This document shows positions 1 to 52,090 of a stretch of 52,090 nucleotides of DNA, in pieces; position 1 is the first letter of the stretch, and each line of letters opens with the position of its first letter. The translations under genes were made by a program, and so were the position numbers. Location of the stretch: positions 1 through 52,090 of IMG/VR virus record IMGVR_UViG_3300025697_000033. One strand, written 5' to 3'. The notes under the pieces were generated by a model. The model was given only the letters and a program-made list of their open reading frames with translations, ran no database searches and was not told the DNA's origin. Origin of the DNA: a virus. Its lineage: Duplodnaviria > Caudoviricetes.

Positions 1-126
1 GCCAATTGTCCATTGTGCATAATTAGCGGCGCGATGCCTTTCACTTGGAACGTCTTTTGTTTCAACATGTCATTTCTCCTTGTATTGCCTAACCTATCCG
101 TAAACCGCACAATGCGGAATATACCC

Positions 127-476
127 TTGCCTCGCCCCGCCACGCCATGCCCCGCCTAGCCTCGCCCCGCCACGCCGCGCCAGGCCTTGAGAAAAGTCTT
201 TGTTGCATCCTTGCCTCGCCTTGCCTTGCCCTGCCCAGCCGCGCCTCGCCGCGCCTTGCCAAGCCACGCCTTGAGAAAGTCTTTGTTGTATCCATGCCTT
301 GCCTTGCCTCTCCAGTCCTGGCCGTGCCTCGCCTATCCGAGCCTCGCCACGCCAAGCCTTGCCTTGCCCCTCCAGGCCAAGCCTTGAGAAAGTCTTTGTT
401 GTATCCATGCCTCGCCCGTCCATGCCAGGCCGCGCCTTGCCATGCCTCTCCGCGCCCATCCACGCCGTGCCTCGCC
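127..476 (-). repeat. Phased GG(C/A)-NN pentamer array, 4 units (12,12,18,14 pentamers); putative guide-RNA array, allele A
   Basis: Plus strand parses as NN-(g/t)cc without register breaks. Linkers GAGAAA(A)GTCTTTGTTG(T/C)ATCC at 189-210, 273-293 and 386-406. Confidence 0.9.
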
Positions 477-477
477 A

Positions 478-579
478 TAAAAAAGCCCCAACTACGCAGA
501 GACCGGCGAAGGAATGCGCAATTAGGGCTAAACAGGATCGCTCCTGTAAAAACTCGCTATGTGATTTCGCCGATCTCAT
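478..579 (-). ncRNA. Structured leader RNA (5' strand, GCGA hairpin, terminator-like hairpin with complementary loop)
   Basis: 15-bp stem 484-498/515-529 with G-U pairs valid only on the minus strand, followed by a U-tract. The loop pairs over 12 bp with 566-577. Small hairpin ACAGGA-GCGA-UCCUGU at 532-547. Confidence 0.65.
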
Positions 580-585
580 ATTCAA

Positions 586-614
586 ACTATACTAGAAAAA
601 CCTTTGGATGTCAA
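586..614 (-). promoter_or_regulatory. sigma70-type promoter for the array/RAMP operon
   Basis: TTGACA (614-609), 17 bp spacer, TATAGT (591-586). Confidence 0.85.
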
Positions 615-892
615 GCGCTCTTTTCCGCCGCCGCCCGCGCCTTGCATGTGGCCTCAAGCGCGGCAACCCGTTCCGACACCTCGTGGCCCCGGTCGCTTAT
701 CGTGTTTACGTTTTCCCATATCTCTCTGATTTGGTTTGCCATGCTATTCACGGAATCGCCAACATTTCCAATTGCGTCTCGGAGCCTGCCGATATGCAAG
801 CCGAGCGCCCACCGAAACGTCCCCAGAAGGGCCAGGTAAAAGGCAATGCCTATTCCCCCGAGTTTTGCCGCGTCTGCCAATCCGATTTCCAT
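611..892 (-). CDS. Small membrane protein with coiled coil (holin/XhlA-like candidate)
   Basis: MEIGLADAAKLGGIGIAFYLALLG hydrophobic segment then heptad-like region; AAGGAA RBS; last gene of tail operon. Confidence 0.5.
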   Translation of the reverse strand: MEIGLADAAKLGGIGIAFYLALLGTFRWALGLHIGRLRDAIGNVGDSVNSMANQIREIWENVNTISDRGHEVSERVAALEATCKARAAAEKSA

Positions 893-930
893 GTCTATTT
901 CCTTATTCACTTTGATCACTCCGCCCCCGG

Positions 931-3239: not shown

Positions 3240-6200
3240 TTATACCGCCGCCCATCCTCGGGCCTCTTGCGTGATTTCAACCCACGGCACATTCGGGAAA
3301 TCTGTGAGTCGCCGCGTAACAGCAAGCCTGTCGCCAATATAATATCCTGGCGTGATGACCTGATCCTCCGTCACCCCATCAAGCACCGCATCACGATGGC
3401 GGAGCGTGGTCGATGTGTATTCCACCGAATCGCCGTTTTCAAAAACCCGCGCCACTCCATTGTATGAGTCTATCCATATTCCAAGAGACGGTGCCACATT
3501 CATCACGATTCCGGTTGCCTGCTCAAGCTCAACGTCATACCTAACGCACTCCAAGTATTGCGTCTGGATGCCTGTAACAATCGCGTACTCGATGCCGCGC
3601 TCCCACCAGTCACCGTTCCAAAACTCAAAGCCGTTTTCCGTGATTCGCGTGCTCCCCGTTGCTGGCACGTCCGGGTCAGTTGGGTCATCCGGGTCATTCA
3701 GCGTCACGCCGCCCTCGCCGGTGTTATAGATGCTGGTGATGTCGCCCGGCTGGCTGCGATTTATAAGCGCCTCAATGATGTCTTCCATGGTTCCGCGCCG
3801 ATTGTCCAATTCCATTTCGATTGGCAACGGATTCCCGCCGATGTCATACCGCACCTTGAGCACCTGCACCTCCGTGTCTACGTCTTGATCCGCGTCGAGC
3901 ACTTGCACTACTTGGCCCTTGTACAGCCCGTTGAATCCTAGATCCCATGCCGTGTTGGTGCCTGTCAAATCGACGGCGATTGTCGTGCCGGTGCGCCCCG
4001 GTACGTCGTTCGCCAGCATGCTCAAATCAAGCGTGTTCAATCGATACGAGATAAACGGGTCTTTGAACTCTTCAAGCGCCCGCAGAACGGCGGCCTCCAG
4101 TATGTCGGGGTCGGTGATTTGGGAGTCGGTCAAGATGAATTCGCGGATGCCATAGGCCGCAACGCTCGTATCATCCTGAATGTAACCAGTTGCATATCCA
4201 GCGTCCACCAAAGAGAGCCGCTTTTCAGGGATGTCGCCCTCGCCGAATCCATGGATCCGGTTTGCAAGCTCACTACGATCCTCTCGCGCCTCAAGCCCCA
4301 CAAGCCGCTCCCCGGCTGCGATTGCATCCGGCCCGCCGATAACCTCAATCTTGCGCCGCCAATTGAATTTGTTTTCCGCGTCCACCCACCAGACGCCCGC
4401 GTTTTCCTTGCCGATGGATTTCTGCATCTGCCTAATCACGGCGAGTATGTTCGTGTCCACCAGCTTCACGTCCGCAACCTGAGCCTCGATTTGCGGGTCA
4501 ATAATGCCAATTGAAACAGGCCGCTCATGGACTTGATCGGCTATGATTTCTTCCAAGACGCTTTGAACCGTGCCGGATGTTTCAATAAACGGGATAACCT
4601 CCCGCCCCATTTGCACAACCGCGTTGGCCGCGTAAACGTCAATGAAGAAAGCATCGCCCTCATTTGACCGCATGGGCTGTTCAACCGTGAATGCTCCAAG
4701 CGCAAGCCCCCAGCGGTCCCTCAGAACCAGCCGCGCATTGGGGTCCATGAGCGCCTCTGTTTGCGAAGCGTCTTTGGTGGGATCAGCGGTGACTCGAAAC
4801 TGAATATCACTCGCCTCATTCACGCGGTCGGTGAAGGTGCCATTATCCACTTGATTGATTTCCGCCATGAGTCCGTCAGTGCCGTATACCTCAATCTTGT
4901 AGAGCAGAACATCGCTTTCCTGGTAGGTTGTGGAGGTCGGCGGAACGCCGTCGAAGTCGGTCCCAAACACAACGCCATCGCTCGTTGTGGTGGTGATCGA
5001 AAGATCGTCGTTGAACGTCAGCGGCGTGGTGATGGTGTAGCTGCCCTCTTCGCCCGAGATGGTCCAGGTCGAAAGGCCCGCTGAATCAAACGCCGTTTGC
5101 ACCGTCGCCACGGAAGCATTATCCAAGAATTCCACACTGTAAAGCGTCCGATCAATTCGGATGCTCAGCGTCACCGTGTCGCCGCTTTCGTCGGTGGTCA
5201 ACGTATAGATCCGCGTTTTGGGCGTGGTGCCGCTGGGCGCGGACGGATCTCGCTGCCATGGCTCCCGATTCCAAAACTCTGTGGTATTCTGCACGCCGTT
5301 GGTGCCGTCGCCGTGAATGCCGCCGCCGATAATAATGCCGCCGCCCGCCACGCCGGGAGAGGATACCCCCACACTTGGAAGGTGCATGCCAATCCGCGCC
5401 GTGCCGACAAAGCCCGACATGTCGAGGACCGCGTCGGCGACGTACCCCACCGTGATTTGCCGCTCTTCACCCGCGCTAAGCTCAACGAAAATAGGCTCAG
5501 GCGTTCTGTAGCCGGCCACCGGCAGGAACGTCACCCAATACTCTCCCGCGTCGAGCGTGATCGCCTCACCGGAATCGCGCCACGCCTCATTGGCTACTTG
5601 CCACGCTGAACCCGATGGGCCGGAAATCAAGACGTTCAAGCCCACTTCCGCCGCCGTGTAGGTGATGGTTTCCGAAAGTAGATCGCCCGCTGGAACCGTC
5701 ACGAATTTGGAGGCGGGTTCGATCCATCCTGATTGTGGTTTCGCGGAAAGGGAGTATTGCGCGGCCAGCACAGTGATGGTTTCGCCTGAATCCGTGAAGG
5801 GCGCCGCGCCGGTCAATGTGTAGCCGCCGCCCGCGATTGCGCCAGCCGGGGCGATGGTGCCCTTGAATTGTCCATTGATAGGCGTGTAGGTTCCGGTGAC
5901 TTCGGTATCCACGCCGTCCGTCAAATTGGTGTCGAAGTCTTCCGGTGCGTCATAGGTCGAAAGATTGCTTGAGAATGCGATGGTGTATGGGTTCGCAGAA
6001 ACAGGCAATGCCACCGTCGCGCCGGATGCCCTCGGTGTGACTCCCGCGTCAACGCTCCATGTTTCTCCCGTCACAGCCGCCGCCGGGGAAAGCGTCACTG
6101 TCAGATTGCCATTGCCCGCTGCAAGAGGCACCCAGATCGCGGTATGCGTCACGGTGGTATCGCTTGACACCTCCACGTTTTCGCCCGTGGGGGTCGTAAA

Positions 6201-9266: not shown

Positions 9267-11093
9267 CTACAACCTCCGCCCGCGCCGGCCAAGCCCGTTC
9301 TGGATCCTGTCAGCGAGAATATCACCCAGCATGTTAGCGTCCATCGGGCTATTGACCGTCATCCCCGGCATGTTGACCGTGACGGGGTTTCCGCCCCCGC
9401 CGCCTGCTCCGCCCCCGCCGCCTGCTCCGCCCCCGCCGCCTGCTCCGCCGCCGCCGCTTAGTGCTGGAGCTGGACCACGCAGAAGCCCAGCGCCAGCCCC
9501 CGCACTCAAAATAGATCCGAGAGGTCCAGGCAACAGAGCGCTCCCTATGCCAGCAAGCAAGAAAGGCAATTCGGCGGCCTTGGAAACAAGGAAGGAAATC
9601 ATTCTGAGTATGTCATTCGTGATGTTGTTAAAAATATTCAACACGCCAAGCCAGATATTGATAAACGCATTCCCCGCCGCGATCCAGTTTCCTTCCCATA
9701 GGTTGGAAAAGATGGCGAAAAAATCTTCCGTGAGAATGATGATTTCATTCCAATTTGAAGCGATAACCGCCACAACCGCGCCTATCGCAACGCCCACGCC
9801 AGCAATGGCCGCCGCCACGACAAGCCCGCCGGACGTGATAGCGCCAAAGAGAGCAATAAGGCCGGGAAGCGCAATCAGTAAAGGACCAAGAACAAGCATT
9901 AGAGCGCCAACGGCACCAACAATGACAATGATGGTTTGTGTCAACATCGGATTTGCTTTTGCCCATTCGGCAATACGGCCAAGAATTGGCGCGATAAACC
10001 TCGCAATAGCCCCAAGTGCGGGAATAAGCGCTTGGCCTATAGGGATCATGACAGACTCAATAGCGCTTCCAAGAAGTTTTAGCTGCCCCTGCAGGGTGTT
10101 TAGCTGCTTCTCGGCTGTCTCTTTTGCCGCACCGCCCGCGTTGTTCAGGCTTTCCGTCAATCCATTGATCTTGCCTATATCTTCAGTTATCGACGCGGCC
10201 ACAACGCCATTCCGCTTTCCAAACGCTTCCATTATTTGCGTGGCCGTTGCGCCTTTTGAACTCAAAAAATCAAATGATTCCGCTACTGTTCGGTTCTCAA
10301 AGTCCAAGTCTTCCAGAGTTAGCCCAAGATCACTAAGCAGCGTGTTTAGCCCGTTAGAGCCTACAGCAAGCTCTAACATAATGTTTCGTAAAGCTGTTGC
10401 TGAAGTGCTTGCGTCGATCCCCTTGTCGAAGAGGCTAGACAGTATCGCCGTCACCTCTTCAAGCGGCACGTTCAACTGCTTTGCCGCCGTGGCAACAATA
10501 GGCATTGCCACTGAAAACTTATCCATGCTTGCGGCGCTGCTGCCATTTGCCTTCGTGAAAACATCCGCTATCCGGGCCGTCTCCACATTCGCAAGGCCAA
10601 AGCCCTTTAGTGTTGCTGTGACGATTTCCGTGGTTGTGGCGAGGTCAAATTGAGAAGCGGCTGCAAGGTCAAGGATGGGTTGCAACTCAGCCACGCTCAT
10701 GGATGCAACATCAAAACCCTTGCTACTCAGATCAAAGAAAGCATTTGCGGCCTCTGTGGCGCTGAAAACGGTTGTCTGCCCGAGCGTTTGCGCGAGAGCT
10801 TCCATTTTCTTCTTCGCAATCTCAAACTCATTCCCTGTCTTGCCCGTCACCGCAGCCGCGTTTGTGATGGCTTGCTCAAATGTTGCAGCGGCTGATACCG
10901 CTTTCCCCAATGCGCCCGTAATCACCGCCCCCGCAGCCGTCATCGCAAGCCCGACCTTTGGGCCAAGATCGGCAAGCTTTTTCGTGGCCCCTTTGACGGC
11001 GTTGTCTACACTGCGCAAAAAGCCTTTTGAATTGGCGATGATCTCCCAGAAAAGATCTCCGCCTTTTACATCATTCGCCATCAGTTTATCCAA
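9267..11093 (-). CDS. Tape measure protein, TP901 family
   Basis: FEQAITNAAAVTG, TTVFSATEAANAF, ARIADVF, GIDASTSATALR core motifs; hydrophobic C-terminal part. Start may be 11081. Confidence 0.92.
   Translation of the reverse strand: MDKLMANDVKGGDLFWEIIANSKGFLRSVDNAVKGATKKLADLGPKVGLAMTAAGAVITGALGKAVSAAATFEQAITNAAAVTGKTGNEFEIAKKKMEALAQTLGQTTVFSATEAANAFFDLSSKGFDVASMSVAELQPILDLAAASQFDLATTTEIVTATLKGFGLANVETARIADVFTKANGSSAASMDKFSVAMPIVATAAKQLNVPLEEVTAILSSLFDKGIDASTSATALRNIMLELAVGSNGLNTLLSDLGLTLEDLDFENRTVAESFDFLSSKGATATQIMEAFGKRNGVVAASITEDIGKINGLTESLNNAGGAAKETAEKQLNTLQGQLKLLGSAIESVMIPIGQALIPALGAIARFIAPILGRIAEWAKANPMLTQTIIVIVGAVGALMLVLGPLLIALPGLIALFGAITSGGLVVAAAIAGVGVAIGAVVAVIASNWNEIIILTEDFFAIFSNLWEGNWIAAGNAFINIWLGVLNIFNNITNDILRMISFLVSKAAELPFLLAGIGSALLPGPLGSILSAGAGAGLLRGPAPALSGGGGAGGGGGAGGGGGAGGGGGNPVTVNMPGMTVNSPMDANMLGDILADRIQNGLGRRGRRL
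9391..9456. repeat. 18-bp tandem repeat encoding (GGGGGA)n in tape measure C-terminus
   Basis: ccgcccccgccgcctgct, three full copies plus a partial one. Confidence 0.85.
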
Positions 11094-47917: not shown

Positions 47918-48250
47918 AACGTTGTGCTTGGCTTGATCTTTCAAAAAGGTGAGCTTCCCGGAAATCAGCGGGGCAACAACAGTCGTAATCACGGTTGCGA
48001 TGGCCGCGTCGCCATCAATGCCCCAGGGGATTTTGTCACCAAAAAAACTGCGGGCGAATGTGAGAATGGCAACCACCGTTCCGCCGCCGACAACCACGCC
48101 GCCGATGGTGTGTTTTGCGGTAGTTCTCGCCTTTTTGCTCGACTTCTCTTTGCTTCGATTCCAGATCGCCATACCATTTCTCCTTCGGGCTTTCACCCAT
48201 TTGTGTTGCGCTCTATGGCCGCGCCACACGGCCTTAATTAGTCGCCACAT
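47915..48250 (-). CDS. Holin-like membrane protein
   Basis: Two hydrophobic segments; downstream of endolysin. Confidence 0.55.
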   Translation of the reverse strand: MWRLIKAVWRGHRAQHKWVKARRRNGMAIWNRSKEKSSKKARTTAKHTIGGVVVGGGTVVAILTFARSFFGDKIPWGIDGDAAIATVITTVVAPLISGKLTFLKDQAKHNV

Positions 48251-48537
48251 TATCCAACCAACCGAGGCCGATAATCATGGTCAACAGTGCCACCAACGCT
48301 TCAAACAGTCGCATCAACTCTTCTATCATTTTTTCCTGCCTTTCTGGCGTTTTCCGCGCCACTTGAAAGTGTGTCCAATCTTCACGCCACGGCCCAATAG
48401 CCATTTGATGATATTCATCGATACGCCCTCGCCAGCCACCAACGCACCCGAACCGCCGCGTAGATCGCCCATAAAGCAAATAGGTGAAGACCAAGACCAA
48501 AGTCAGTGCAGATCTGGTCGAAGATGCTTTCCTTCAT
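48234..48537 (-). other. Chain of three ATGA-coupled micro-ORFs (48415-48537, 48326-48418, 48234-48329)
   Basis: 40, 30 and 31 aa; each start overlaps the previous stop. Confidence 0.45.
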
Positions 48538-49058
48538 CGGTACGCCCTCGCCAGCCAGCCTTTCAGGAATCGCCCGTACTTGCTCCGGTTTTTCGTCGCC
48601 AACACGCGATAGAATCCGGCCTGCTCAGAACGCATCGCGCAAAAGAGAGAGAGCGCCGTCATACTATTGGCGGCCTCGGCTGTCTTGCGGCCTAGAATGC
48701 CATCCTCGACAAGCGGGAGCCCACACGCCCTGCACGCCCGCTGTAGAATTTTCACGCCTTGGCGGATGCCCATGTTGACCACGCAGTCGAAAGTCTTCTC
48801 AGCTACTGTGGCGTTCGTTAAATTGCAGAGTTTGGCGGGCACCCAGAAGCGGTCGAAATAAAGCTGGATCGCCTGCTCTTCGCTCAAACCCTTGATGTCA
48901 TCCGCGTCGATGTCTCCGTCGCCGTCCACATCGAGACAGGCTTCGCGGATTACAGGAATGGTGATACCATAATTCGTGACCCCCGCGTGATCGGTGGTTA
49001 GTCCGCCTTCGTTTTCCAGGACGGTCCTTATAGCAAGCTCGAAGAATGCGTGTCTCAT
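48534..49058 (-). CDS. Endolysin, glycoside hydrolase family 108 with PG_binding_3-type tail
   Basis: VLENEGG, GVTNYGIT, FDCVVNMG, DGILGRKT, FLKGWLAR; EF-hand-like DVDGDGDIDADD. Confidence 0.93.
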   Translation of the reverse strand: MRHAFFELAIRTVLENEGGLTTDHAGVTNYGITIPVIREACLDVDGDGDIDADDIKGLSEEQAIQLYFDRFWVPAKLCNLTNATVAEKTFDCVVNMGIRQGVKILQRACRACGLPLVEDGILGRKTAEAANSMTALSLFCAMRSEQAGFYRVLATKNRSKYGRFLKGWLARAYR

Positions 49059-49179
49059 GCGTCCGCCGCTCCTCTGTCTTCGTCTGGCACGGATACCTCG
49101 ATATGCGGTATGCCGTAAATCATCACAAACGATCTGGGGTTATACGCCGCGCCGCCGGGTTGAACCTTAATCAATACGT

Positions 49180-49524
49180 TCATGCTCTCGCCTCCGCAAC
49201 TTCCTTCAAATCCAGGGCAAGCTCCGCCTGTGTGGCGTGGTGCTCTTCGAGGGTGGGGATCTCGGTGACTGCGGACCAACCCGCATCAATGATGTCGGCG
49301 GCTCTTGCTAATGCAACTGACATTGCTCTCGCCTCAACAGCCCCGCCAATTCTCCCAGGCGCATCCATAAAAACGAATGGAGGCTGTTCTTCCAGTCGAT
49401 AGGCTTCAAACCTTACCTGTATTCGGGTAGGTCCAGAAAATTCTTCCAACGGCTTTCCGGGGAATAGCGTCACTACATAGTTACTCCCAAAGTTCTCCCT
49501 AATCGCCACCACGTCATCGCACAT
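49180..49524 (-). CDS. Hypothetical protein
   Basis: AAGGAG RBS before MCDDVV. Confidence 0.6.
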   Translation of the reverse strand: MCDDVVAIRENFGSNYVVTLFPGKPLEEFSGPTRIQVRFEAYRLEEQPPFVFMDAPGRIGGAVEARAMSVALARAADIIDAGWSAVTEIPTLEEHHATQAELALDLKEVAEARA

Positions 49525-49735
49525 GATTTTCTCCTTCGTTTTGTAAAAGGCGGGCGCGTTTCGTGGTGCCAGCATTCTATGATGCTGCCCAGGTGGCCTG
49601 CGCCCGCTTGACCGCTGGTTAAACCAAGCGGCGCGGTTTGGTTTCGGCCACTGAAAAATGTACGGGGATTTCGGCTTTCACCTCCACTTGCCGCCAAGAA
49701 GCTATCAAGGCCGACGCAGCGTCTATCCCGAAAAA

Positions 49736-49812
49736 TGGTAGCGGCGACGGGACTCGAACCCGTGAACTGCTGCGTATGAAACAGCCGAGATGACCATCTT
49801 CTCCACACCGCG
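49736..49812 (-). tRNA. tRNA with CAT anticodon (Met, partly initiator-like)
   Basis: 77-nt cloverleaf CGCGGTG TG GAGA..TCTC G GCTGT TTCATAC GCAGC AGTTC ACGGG TTCGAGT CCCGT CGCCGCT ACCA. Confidence 0.9.
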
Positions 49813-49913
49813 CCAAAACTGATTCAACTTTTCCCTTCCAGAGCGACGGGCCGGGGTTTCATCGACCCGCCGCCAAACGAAGGAGAAACGCCATGAAACG
49901 CTTCCCTTGTAGG

Positions 49914-50444
49914 TTAGCATGAATGGGGCGGGGTGTCAATAGGTGCTGGCGCTTCTTCGGTTCTACCCGCCAATACATTAGGCGTTGTTCGTTGCGCCGC
50001 TATCATCCTCCTGGCGTCATCTTGGCCCGCCTTCGCCCCCATGATAATTTTGCCTTGCTTGAATAGTCGGTGCTGATGCGCCCGGACATCGGGATCGTCG
50101 AGTTGAGATTCGTCCACTCCCATCTGTCGAAAATGCGCCTTCAACATGCCCCGGAATGATGACCTGAATCGGCGATCATTGTATTCGGTGGCCTCTATGT
50201 CCGTCAAGACTTGCAGGCCGTCCTGGTGGATTTTCACGGTGTAGCTTTTGCCAAGATCTTCAAGTCCCAAGCTCATTGCTGCTTGCAGCCCCATCAACGC
50301 AAACTGGTATTGCACGGTTCCGCGCTTTTTGTTCGTGATGGTTTCAATTTCAGAAGCCGGGAACAAATCGCCCTTTTCGATAGACTCATAGTCGAACGGA
50401 ACTCTGCTTGCTATTCCGTCTTGTGTTTCTTCTGTGTCGCTCAT
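49914..50444 (-). CDS. Unknown 176-aa protein directly downstream of the array (candidate accessory of the RAMP system)
   Basis: AGGAG RBS before MSDTEETQ; same strand, 36 bp after the last array unit. Confidence 0.75.
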   Translation of the reverse strand: MSDTEETQDGIASRVPFDYESIEKGDLFPASEIETITNKKRGTVQYQFALMGLQAAMSLGLEDLGKSYTVKIHQDGLQVLTDIEATEYNDRRFRSSFRGMLKAHFRQMGVDESQLDDPDVRAHQHRLFKQGKIIMGAKAGQDDARRMIAAQRTTPNVLAGRTEEAPAPIDTPPHSC

Positions 50445-50480
50445 GTTTTTTCTCCTGTTTTTCCAAACCAAAATATACCC

Positions 50481-51013
50481 TCGCCATGCCTTGCCAGTCC
50501 AGGCCTTGCCTGTCCAGGCCATGCCTCGCCTTGCCCAGCCTCTCCATGCCATGCCCTGAGAAAGTCTTTGTTGTATCCATGCCTTGCCCGTCCCGTCCAT
50601 GCCAGGCCTTGCCTCGCCACGCCTTGCCGCGCCCCGCCGAGCCTTGAGAAAGCCTTTGTTGTATCCATGCCTTGCCAGTCCAGGCCTTGCCTATCCAGGC
50701 CTTGCCTAGCCCTGCCTTGCCCAGCCGTGCCAAGCCTTGAGAAAGTCTTTAATTGCTACCCTTGCCTTGCCTTGCCTTGCCTTGCCTAGCCTCGCCCCTC
50801 CAGGCCAAGCCTTGCCTTGCCCCGCCTCGCCTCGCCACGCCGTGAGAAAGTCTTTGTTGTATCCATGCCTTGCCTATCCCGTCCATGCCTATCCAGGCCT
50901 TGCCGCGCCCCGCCTTGCCTTGCCCCTCCAGGCCTTGAGAAAAGTCTTTGTTGTATCCATGCCTTGCCTTGCCTGTCCCGTCCAGGCCAAGCCACGCCGA
51001 GCCCCGCCACGCC
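50481..51013 (-). repeat. Phased GG(C/A)-NN pentamer array, 6 units (15,13,14,16,14,11 pentamers)
   Basis: Linkers at 50558-50578, 50646-50666, 50739-50761 (degenerate), 50844-50864 and 50937-50958. Confidence 0.9.
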
Positions 51014-51025
51014 ATTAAAAAATCG

Positions 51026-51589
51026 TTACACCACCAAGAACCGCCCAAACTTCGGACGGAAATCACACACGCCCTCATACATCCCCGCCGCCTCAATCGC
51101 CGTCTCAAGTTGCTCCAACTCGATCACTGTATTGTCAAACTGGATGGCAAACTCCGCGCTCCACTCATGGAAGATGGGCCGCGTTCTCACAATCCGCGCC
51201 ATCCCAACCTTAACGAGCCGTTGGTCAACAAAACTCTTATCCGCCCACAGCGCGTCAATACCCTTCGGCCCGCTGTACTTCAGCGCCGCGTCGCCATCAC
51301 AGAAGATCGACGCCTTGAAAGCCTTCCCGAGTTTGCTTTTCTTCGCGCCCGACACCAAACACGCCTCGACATATTCGCTCGGGATGCACGGGTGTCCTTT
51401 GCCGTTAAGCAACAGGCTCCCGTACCATTCTACCTCGGCCATTTGCTCGTAGGTTTCTTCGGTCTTGTTTCGCTTGCCGCTGAGTTTTTTGAGCCGTTGC
51501 GTCCATTCGTTCATCGGGTTCGCCAATTGTCCATTGTGCATAATTAGCGGCGCGATGCCTTTCACTTGGAACGTCTTTTGTTTCAACAT
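51026..51589 (-). CDS. Stand-alone Cas7/RAMP-like RNA-binding protein (187 aa), putative VIPR-type effector
   Basis: AAGGAG RBS; RAMP-like pattern: beta1 FQVKGIAPLIMH, HPCIPSEYVEACL, thumb-like RIVRTRPIF..W, C-terminal G-loop AGMYEGVCDFRPKFGRF; flanked by arrays. Confidence 0.75.
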   Translation of the reverse strand: MLKQKTFQVKGIAPLIMHNGQLANPMNEWTQRLKKLSGKRNKTEETYEQMAEVEWYGSLLLNGKGHPCIPSEYVEACLVSGAKKSKLGKAFKASIFCDGDAALKYSGPKGIDALWADKSFVDQRLVKVGMARIVRTRPIFHEWSAEFAIQFDNTVIELEQLETAIEAAGMYEGVCDFRPKFGRFLVV

Positions 51590-52090
51590 GTCATTTCTCC
51601 TTGTATTGCCTAACCTATCCATAAACCGCACAATGCGGAATATACCCTTGCCCAGCCTCGCCTCTCCCAGCCTTGCCTTGCCACGCCCCGCCTCGCCTTG
51701 CCACGCCGTGAGAAAGTCTTTGTTGTATCCATGCCTTGCCTCGCCTTGCCTTGCCAGGCCGCGCCTCGCCCATCCAGGCCAAGCCATGCCCTGAGAAAGT
51801 CTTTGTTGTATCCATGCCTCGCCTTGCCCTGCCCAGCCGCGCCGCGCCATGCCACGCCAAGCCGCGCCCTGAAAAAGTCTTTGTTGTATCCTTGCCTCGC
51901 CTATCCCGTCCCCGCCTCGCCTCGCCATGCCGATCCATGCCAAGCCGGACCACTCCATGCCGAGCCATAAAAAAGCCCCAACTACGCAGAGACCGGCGAA
52001 GGAATGCGCAATTAGGGCTAAACAGGATCGCTCCTGTAAAAACTCGCTATGTGATTTCGCCGATCTCATATTCAAACTATACTAGAAAAA
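51522..52090. repeat. Terminal redundancy, right copy (allele of 1-600)
   Basis: See left copy; includes the leader copy at about 51968-52069 and the -10 box. Confidence 0.95.
51648..51966 (-). repeat. Phased GG(C/A)-NN pentamer array, 4 units (12,12,11,15 pentamers); allele B
   Basis: Linkers at 51710-51730, 51793-51813 and 51871-51891. Confidence 0.9.

Follow-up and report, generated by a model that had tools for sequence, protein, structure and literature searches.

A VIPR guide array in two versions at the ends of a salt-lake phage contig suggests exchange of whole guide cassettes

Introduction

VIPR is a minimal, mostly viral locus in which vipr encodes a small RAMP protein (Vipr) and vap is an accessory gene; its vrRNAs contain 9–16 GGY/NN pentamers ahead of a constant 3′ tail, and their arrays are located in intergenic DNA flanking vipr (10.64898/2026.04.26.720920). 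The NN pairs of the vrRNAs read double-stranded DNA with one base skipped per unit, and the system silences competing phages, satellites and prophages (10.64898/2026.04.26.720920). VIPR has been described only in preprints of 2026, where it is known from Escherichia phage SUSP1 and from a Pseudomonas fulva prophage (‘type II’; 10.64898/2026.04.26.720920, 10.64898/2026.04.26.720927, 10.64898/2026.10.15.759431); 99 VIPR-like clusters and non-canonical repeat units have also been reported (10.64898/2026.10.21.760802). In 32 near-identical loci, 96 unique vrRNAs were found (10.64898/2026.04.26.720920). The main texts of two of these reports, the supplements of which may hold array comparisons, do not say how guides are acquired or exchanged (10.64898/2026.04.26.720920, 10.64898/2026.10.15.759431). 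Here, we analyse a VIPR locus in a tailed phage of a salt lake (Duplodnaviria, Caudoviricetes; IMG/VR record IMGVR_UViG_3300025697_000033). The whole stretch of 52 090 nucleotides is called the window in the following. It carries two guide arrays, array B upstream of vipr and array A between vipr and a gene that we call X2, and array B is found in two different versions, one at each end of the contig.

The explanation that we favour, with a probability of about 0.7, is that these are the VIPR guide arrays of a salt-lake tailed phage and that the two versions of array B are two population haplotypes of a single locus, between which the whole cassette has been exchanged.

Results and discussion

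A distant member of the VIPR family

Vipr is encoded between the two arrays (51026–51589, minus strand) as a minimal RAMP protein of 187 residues that is predicted to bind vrRNA. Its residues 6–186 match residues 5–187 of PDB entry 36pp_D (‘SUSP1 Vipr protein’) with an E value of 1.2e-30, and its family is phrog_4652 (E value of 3.8e-53). Relatives are present in 131 phage records, mainly felixounaviruses at 36.7% identity. The contacts to the two guanines and the G-loop that are reported for SUSP1 Vipr involve H17, E71, R138, D177 and R179 (10.64898/2026.04.26.720927); these residues are kept here as H18, E72, R137, D176 and R178, and the published W178 is a phenylalanine. A scan of IMG/VR for Vipr relatives with one protein found none. 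A pattern search of IMG/VR for nine or more GGCNN units gave at least 120 stretches, and a Vipr relative is encoded in the fetched DNA of 53 of 120 of them among the matches listed. Among the matches listed, the closest relatives are L017 and L065; in both, as in the window, vipr lies between vrRNAs, the second of which is followed by an X2-like gene, and the short tail is related.

The arrays themselves have a very regular scaffold. All 189 pentamers of the 14 runs begin with GG, and their third base is C in 161 cases, A in 27 and T in one. Since runs of at least five such units are confined to these two loci, and to the minus strand, in 52 kb, the pattern is far beyond chance. The runs are 11–18 units long, and each internal run is followed by a linker (tail) of 22–23 nucleotides. 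The two 3′-most units are semi-conserved (mostly GGCAA/GGCGA and then GGCAT/GGCAA), also in L017 and L065, and may belong to the handle rather than to the guide. It should be noted that the NN following GGA is never AA, AT or GC. Of six registers compared, codon positions 1+2 of sense strands come closest to the 161 core NN pairs in composition (log-likelihood of −437; −445 to −502 in the remaining five), in agreement with the published rule of a one-nucleotide skip.

The window thus holds a Vipr protein, runs of vrRNA pentamers with a tail and, in the genome of a tailed phage, arrays to either side of vipr. The Vipr match, the published form of the arrays and their position around vipr together identify the arrays, on sequence grounds, as vrRNA guide genes of a VIPR system. 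The word ‘guide’ in the initial annotation, which was made from the letters alone, is borne out by the Vipr homology and by the form of the arrays. The locus is a distant member of the VIPR family and not a new kind of system. It shares with the SUSP1 and P. fulva loci a full-length Vipr homologue with the main GG-contact residues, GG-pyrimidine/NN pentamers with a constant tail, arrays on both sides of vipr, carriage by a phage, the absence of a self-target in its own genome and an NN composition like that of codon positions 1+2. On the other hand, SUSP1 has 1+3 guides (10.64898/2026.04.26.720920), compared with ten here (4+6), and runs in the SUSP1 clade contain 9–16 units, compared with up to 18 here (one run of 18). 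The tail forms a pseudoknot in the SUSP1 clade, whereas the 22–23 nucleotides of the present tail have no predicted structure. Moreover, Vipr is only 36.7% identical to its felixounavirus relatives and the third scaffold base can be A. Finally, array A separates vipr from X2 here, and X2 is unrelated in sequence to the gene that follows vipr in phage HY02.

The arrays of class 1 CRISPR systems with RAMP effectors also alternate constant and variable parts, serve a RAMP-related effector and are hypervariable in repertoire between close relatives. Unlike these, the present arrays encode a non-contiguous guide, with one NN per five-nucleotide unit, show no leader-end polarity and are carried by a phage. 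Cas1 was not found in the window, and the variable parts are themselves periodic at five nucleotides.

Long reading frames run across the arrays on the minus strand (89–585 and 51026–52075), as GG(C/A)NN units and the linker hardly ever form stops. A coding pentapeptide repeat was rejected as an explanation: the open reading frames of the arrays are a by-product of the stop-poor unit, and the Vipr match accounts for the arrays. Promoter decoys, considered as another role for the arrays, were dropped after the match to the SUSP1 Vipr structure. The exact linker is absent from IMG/VR and from genome contigs, collections in which the window's own record and very near ones may be left out. An 18-nucleotide part of it occurs in 54 metagenome stretches, none of them beside an array, and these were discarded as chance matches.

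Array B is present in two versions

Positions 1–600 of the window correspond to positions 51522–52090, the left copy (600 bases) being 31 bases longer than the right one (569). In the left flank, positions 1–131 match with a single exception, a G at position 100 that faces an A at 51621. This flank includes a duplicate of the first 23 codons of vipr, as found by end-to-end comparison (1–69, minus strand, equivalent to 51522–51589, with the ATG at 67–69). On the right, the final 127 bases are identical (51964–52090, minus strand, equal to 474–600) and comprise the edge of the last unit, the U-run, a hairpin and part of a promoter-like site. Between the flanks, each copy consists of four runs of five-nucleotide units and three linkers.

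The two versions are called allele 1 (127–476) and allele 2 (51648–51966), both coding for four vrRNA guide runs on the minus strand. In minus-strand order, the run listing of allele 1 gives 14, 18, 12 and 12 pentamers (12/12/18/14 in window order): B1-u1 at 407–476, B1-u2 at 294–383, B1-u3 at 211–270 and B1-u4 at 127–186, with linkers at 384–406, 271–293 and 187–210, including one joining base. Allele 2, which is the version present in other data, has 15, 11, 12 and 12 pentamers (12/12/11/15 in window order): B2-u1 at 51892–51966, B2-u2 at 51814–51868, B2-u3 at 51731–51790 and B2-u4 at 51648–51707. The 56 and 50 pentamers differ by 30 bases, and one additional base in an allele-1 linker makes up the difference of 31. 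The three linkers of each allele follow the form GGAT(A/G)CAACAAAGACTTT(T)(C/T)TCA, with small variants that differ between the alleles.

Guides in the same slot agree at 8/28, 4/22, 13/24 and 10/24 NN pairs, where composition leads one to expect about 0.30. The best pair of guides across the alleles, B1-u3 and B2-u2 (common GC TG AG AA), has a score of 8, which is the median of the shuffled maximum, and no guide–guide likeness at the NN level exceeds that of shuffled controls. The initial annotation had described one single-nucleotide difference on the left and 127 identical bases on the right, four units and three linkers per copy, a 31-base difference made up of six pentamers and one linker base, and no unit in common; direct comparison of the ends and of the NN pairs reproduces each of these.

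Allele 1 is a well-formed array, with 56 of 56 units in register, linkers of the same family as those of allele 2 and semi-conserved last units; it is not an error product. No guide is common to the two alleles at either end, and there is no polarity from an old to a new end. The pattern thus supports replacement and not addition at one end. Since the linkers and one flank base differ as well, the cassette looks as if it had been exchanged as a whole, or had long diverged, rather than being edited unit by unit.

Closure of the genome and occurrence of the two versions in other data

The overlap of the contig ends begins 99 bases before the first difference and stops 127 bases past the last; these lengths are presumably two of the k values (word lengths) used at JGI with metaSPAdes. 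The left end of the contig falls within the vipr reading frame. Because of these bounds and of the start inside vipr, the overlap looks like the product of an assembly graph in which a bubble was followed along both of its branches, rather than like a terminal repeat of the DNA itself. The genome of about 51.5 kb would then be a circle, or a permuted or concatemeric form, and the assembler would have gone once round it and continued through the second haplotype until it reached sequence that it had already used.

The region is contained in 24 public runs, nearly all of them salt-lake metagenomes from 2017–2019, and in eight of the 24 runs 98–99% of the sampled words of 48000–52090, including allele 2, are present. 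We compared Logan contigs of four runs (X1, X7, X11 and X15; 2017–2019) with positions 1–1200 of the window. In all four, one contig covers 460–1200, and in X1 and X7 a contig of 9120 nucleotides reaches far beyond 1200. Across a joint from 304 to 460, bridged by 47 other letters, these contigs also match 218–304 with 9–11 other letters (four of four runs). The window's own copies 218–304 and 51816–51902 differ at 11 places, which include all six places found in the run contigs, and 460–600 and 51950–52090 differ at four (within 460–477), which are also seen in the run contigs. The letters of the run contigs are those of the allele-2 pattern; therefore, allele 2 is joined to the window from 601 onwards and the contig closes at this locus. 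Allele 2, the common version, is found again in a protein collection, where P0003 (347 residues, five contigs) is vipr continued across all of allele 2 and P0002 (274 residues, one contig) is vipr continued across part of it, both without a differing letter; that public gene calls include these Vipr ‘proteins’ of 274 and 347 residues is due to the stop-poor arrays. The gene X0, which lies beyond array B, is found on other assemblies of 51 613 and 51 811 bases, where 51 490 or 51 521 would be expected for the closed genome, which is close to these lengths.

The idea put forward in the initial annotation, of a circular genome whose assembly broke at a hypervariable locus, is supported in that all four runs show closure at array B; a circular genome is indistinguishable here from a circularly permuted or concatemeric one. 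A count of haplotypes in other data had been suggested as a check, and its outcome is one-sided: allele 2 appears in contigs of all four runs and allele 1 in none, where run contigs drop rare variants, so that this gap does not show that allele 1 is absent. Logan coverage is nil over 121–200 in the four runs, limited to a trace in X15 over 321–360 and found only in X7 over 401–440. Eleven reading frames through allele 1 and three short ones through allele 2 are absent from the protein collection, a result that is uninformative as the window's own short array reading frames are absent too. Among Vipr relatives of 102–328 residues there is no read-through form with another allele, and the next cluster is 52–54% identical (5.8 billion clusters). 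We consider allele 1 most likely to be a minor haplotype through which the assembler walked.

Other pieces of array-like sequence were seen in the same runs. In X7, a 597-nucleotide contig (depth 22) matches 209–245, that is 37 bases of B1-u3, with one mismatch and has unlike, AT-rich flanks; it may be a solo vrRNA-like stretch of another element in the same lake. In X15, a 222-nucleotide contig matches 356–386 and then enters a different array. In addition, five of the 25 whole-contig loci among L009–L088 (L018, L026, L029, L030 and L038) have an array within 150 bases of the contig end, where about one is expected from position alone, and assemblies may often break at VIPR arrays.

Guides are replaced in fixed slots in related loci

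Related genomes, the comparison of which had also been proposed at the outset, show in-place replacement in independent VIPR loci. Two IMG/VR records, L036 and L078, differ in two of four guides, at 17/55 and 11/50 bases, while about 1380 surrounding bases, including vipr, differ at 12 places. The number of units, the first and last units and the tails of the changed guides are the same, and nearly every NN differs. A third guide occupies the slot in L184, and a similar guide core (AA GC TG AC) is found in different slots of L078 and L184. In L085 and L121 both guides differ, in length as well, and L029 and L041 show three point changes in the array. Guide replacement in fixed slots is thus a recurrent mode of change, and in at least one pair the sequences indicate that it is much faster than the change of the flanks.

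For the window, replacement without CRISPR-like polarity stands, but the fast turnover that the initial annotation had attached to it is not shown: allele 2 was carried in 2017, 2018 and 2019 and on six other contigs. Shared flanks of 126 and 127 bases give too little sequence for dating the turnover, and the differences in the flank and linkers fit the exchange of a long-diverged whole cassette as well as they fit rapid rewriting. The most likely route of exchange would be homologous recombination between related phages or elements via the conserved flanks and tails, perhaps with the annealing protein of the phage itself.

Targets of the guides

Compared with the window itself and with about 1.4 Mb of fetched loci, the guides gave nothing above the level of shuffled guides. 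The exact ten-unit NN patterns of B1-u3, B2-u2 and B1-u4 have 0 matches each in IMG/VR. The exact ten-unit pattern of B2-u4 with a one-nucleotide skip has a single match in IMG/VR, at 5520–5548 of L186. With 20 of 24 NN matched, this site exceeds the published target criterion of 80% NN (10.64898/2026.04.26.720920). It lies in frame in an open reading frame of 132 residues (phrog_33624), the wobble position being the base that is skipped, and adjoins a DNA methyltransferase gene. The L186 contig has a GC content of 36%, compared with 55% here, the last two NN are unmatched and the match could be due to chance.

Alternative explanations

Several observations weigh against the interpretation that we favour. 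Twenty-seven of 189 units carry A at the third scaffold base, where the pocket of SUSP1 Vipr is reported to exclude purines (10.64898/2026.04.26.720927); two pocket positions differ here from SUSP1 (M72 to Y73 and C173 to E172). The 22–23-nucleotide linker has no predicted structure, in contrast to the pseudoknot tail of the SUSP1 clade, and no guide has a target beyond the one ambiguous match. Allele 1 has no independent record, the run contigs that cross the site carrying allele-2 letters in all four runs, and the coexistence of both versions in one sample is deduced from the assembly. Finally, neither a breakpoint nor a donor was seen for the proposed recombination.

Allele 1 could instead come from a different but related element of the lake that shares flanks of about 130 bases, or could be a path stitched together by the assembler over short shared words. 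Its absence from every other record examined, the differences from allele 2 in its linkers and at one flank base, and the fragments in X7 and X15, which show that vrRNA-like pieces of other elements exist in the lake, would all suit such an origin. However, the sequence on either side of allele 1 (99+26 and 127 bases) is that of the phage, with the start of vipr, its leader and the hairpin, and allele 1 has the same number of slots, the same kind of last units and the same linker family as allele 2. The nearest other Vipr cluster among 5.8 billion clusters is only 52–54% identical, so that no second close relative is recorded. We regard this origin as rather unlikely. A truly linear genome with a direct terminal repeat of about 570–600 bases, in which each virion has one allele per end, appears very improbable. 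Some tailed phages do have terminal repeats of this size, and the contig ends do repeat each other over about 570–600 bases, as they would in a terminal repeat or an assembly overlap. Known phage terminal repeats are copied from one template and hence identical, whereas the present copies differ throughout the array. The repeat also begins inside the vipr frame, and 99 and 127 bases separate the variable part from its two limits, lengths that resemble assembler word lengths; contigs of all four runs lead from allele 2 into 601 and beyond, and IMG/VR lists the record as linear and complete, without end repeats. There is hardly any case for a different role of the arrays, as binding sites of a ring-shaped RNA-binding protein or as G-rich structural DNA or RNA. 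TRAP binds 11 (G/U)AG repeats, which the five-nucleotide period, fixed triplet and runs of about 12 units recall, and a GG every five nucleotides could form two-layer quadruplexes. Yet the gene flanked by the arrays is a Vipr homologue with an E value of 1.2e-30, the arrays have the published vrRNA form, and no TRAP-like family was found in 30 open reading frames compared with PHROGs or in ten compared with Pfam.

The manner in which the guides change is a separate matter. A dedicated process might rewrite guides in place, replacing the NN and keeping the scaffold, as an analogue of CRISPR adaptation and not as ordinary recombination. The changed guides of L036 and L078, which differ in nearly all NN and keep their unit number, end units and flanks, would be expected from such a process, as would three different guides in one slot across three related contigs, and the main texts on VIPR name no acquisition route. 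However, an invariant scaffold makes any swapped guide look as if only its NN had changed, and in the window and in L085/L121 the changes extend to the numbers of units and to the linkers. The similar guide core in different slots of L078 and L184 fits moving cassettes, and X2 is the only gene conserved beside vipr that could be a candidate enzyme. Neither reverse transcriptase (RVT_1) nor Cas1 has a match in the window. Diversity-generating retroelements likewise show localized hypervariation between unchanged flanks, but here the window has no reverse transcriptase, the changes extend beyond adenines and the target is non-coding. Dedicated in-place rewriting is thus quite unlikely in our view. 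A broader proposal is that a dedicated or tail-guided copying process rewrites guide slots as units in natural phage populations, exchanging all NN of a guide or of an entire array at a rate well in excess of background divergence and leaving scaffold, tails and flanks in place; it is speculative and we consider it doubtful. Exchange of whole cassettes between haplotypes of one locus remains the explanation that we prefer.

Organization of the locus and of the phage genome

Almost all genes of the window are on the minus strand. In the order of transcription, the locus consists of X0, a promoter-like site, a hairpin with six U, array B, a GGGTATATT box with a ribosome-binding site, vipr, array A, a second GGGTATATT with a ribosome-binding site, X2 and a tRNA-Met gene. 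X0 (611–919, minus strand) encodes 99–102 residues, has no family and is found as an identical protein on many other contigs. The promoter-like site (586–614, minus strand; TTGACA-17-TATAGT, 11/12) is of the sigma-70 type by consensus match only and could drive transcription of array B, vipr, array A and X2. The site is cut by the right end of the window, position 52090 corresponding to 600. Within about 60 bases of this site, a hairpin of 15 pairs (484–529) and a U6 run (478–483) immediately precede the first guide. This element (478–529, minus strand; −33.2 kcal/mol, z = −2.46), which is absent from the listing of a simple terminator scan, is either a terminator of the upstream gene or a leader/attenuator of the array transcript. 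A hairpin with a T-run (51059–51015) also precedes array A, and both arrays begin right after TTTTTTA(A)T. The 5′ leader of vipr (70–126, minus strand) contains a ribosome-binding site, a small hairpin and the GGGTATATT box, and position 100, the flank difference, lies within it.

Array A (50481–51013, minus strand) has six vrRNA guide runs of 11–16 units and five linkers and ends in GGGTATATT before the ribosome-binding site of X2. Its runs, all on the minus strand, are A-u1 (50959–51013), A-u2 (50865–50934), A-u3 (50762–50841), A-u4 (50667–50736), A-u5 (50579–50643) and A-u6 (50481–50555). X2 (49914–50444, minus strand; 176 residues) is located directly downstream. It has no Pfam, PHROG or PDB match, its Atlas neighbours are unnamed viral proteins and it has no likeness to the gene after vipr in the felixounavirus phage HY02. 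Homologues of X2 adjoin vipr in four loci (L065, L017, L092 and L028), and from its position we propose X2 as a candidate accessory (vap-like) gene of Vipr.

By analogy with the SUSP1 mechanism, the two arrays, B with four guides upstream of vipr and A with six between vipr and X2, would be transcribed on the minus strand, probably from the site at 614–586. Each GG(C/A)NN run with its 22–23-nucleotide tail would give one vrRNA. Vipr protomers would bind one unit each, hold GG(C/A) and present the NN pairs; target DNA would be recognized by these in the pattern NN-x-NN-x and silenced, and would probably belong to a gene of a competitor, either another phage or a satellite.

The remainder of the window contains tailed-phage genes, namely those for a terminase, a portal, a tape measure, tail proteins, an endolysin, a DnaB-like helicase, methyltransferases and ParB-like proteins, and a recombination set consisting of a Sak4-like annealing protein, SSB and an exonuclease. 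An Rfam scan of the window found only tRNA and no Rfam CRISPR repeat family. The tape-measure gene contains an 18-nucleotide tandem repeat (9390–9457; 3.8 copies, 98% matches), which is an ordinary coding repeat unrelated to the arrays.

Conclusions

The window adds to the VIPR family a distant salt-lake member, in which ten guides are combined with a short tail lacking predicted structure and with units that have A as the third scaffold base. It further provides a natural case in which one array is found in two versions without a common guide in an otherwise identical backbone, allele 1 being known from this assembly alone. Together with L036/L078/L184 and L085/L121, it points to guide replacement in fixed slots as the mode of change in a system for which the main texts so far name no route of guide gain or swap. 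The 24 public runs of the lake (2017–2019) make guide turnover directly testable over time. If guide slots were indeed rewritten as units, phages without Cas1 would possess a heritable and updatable guide repertoire, of which the window would be a snapshot in one lake population.

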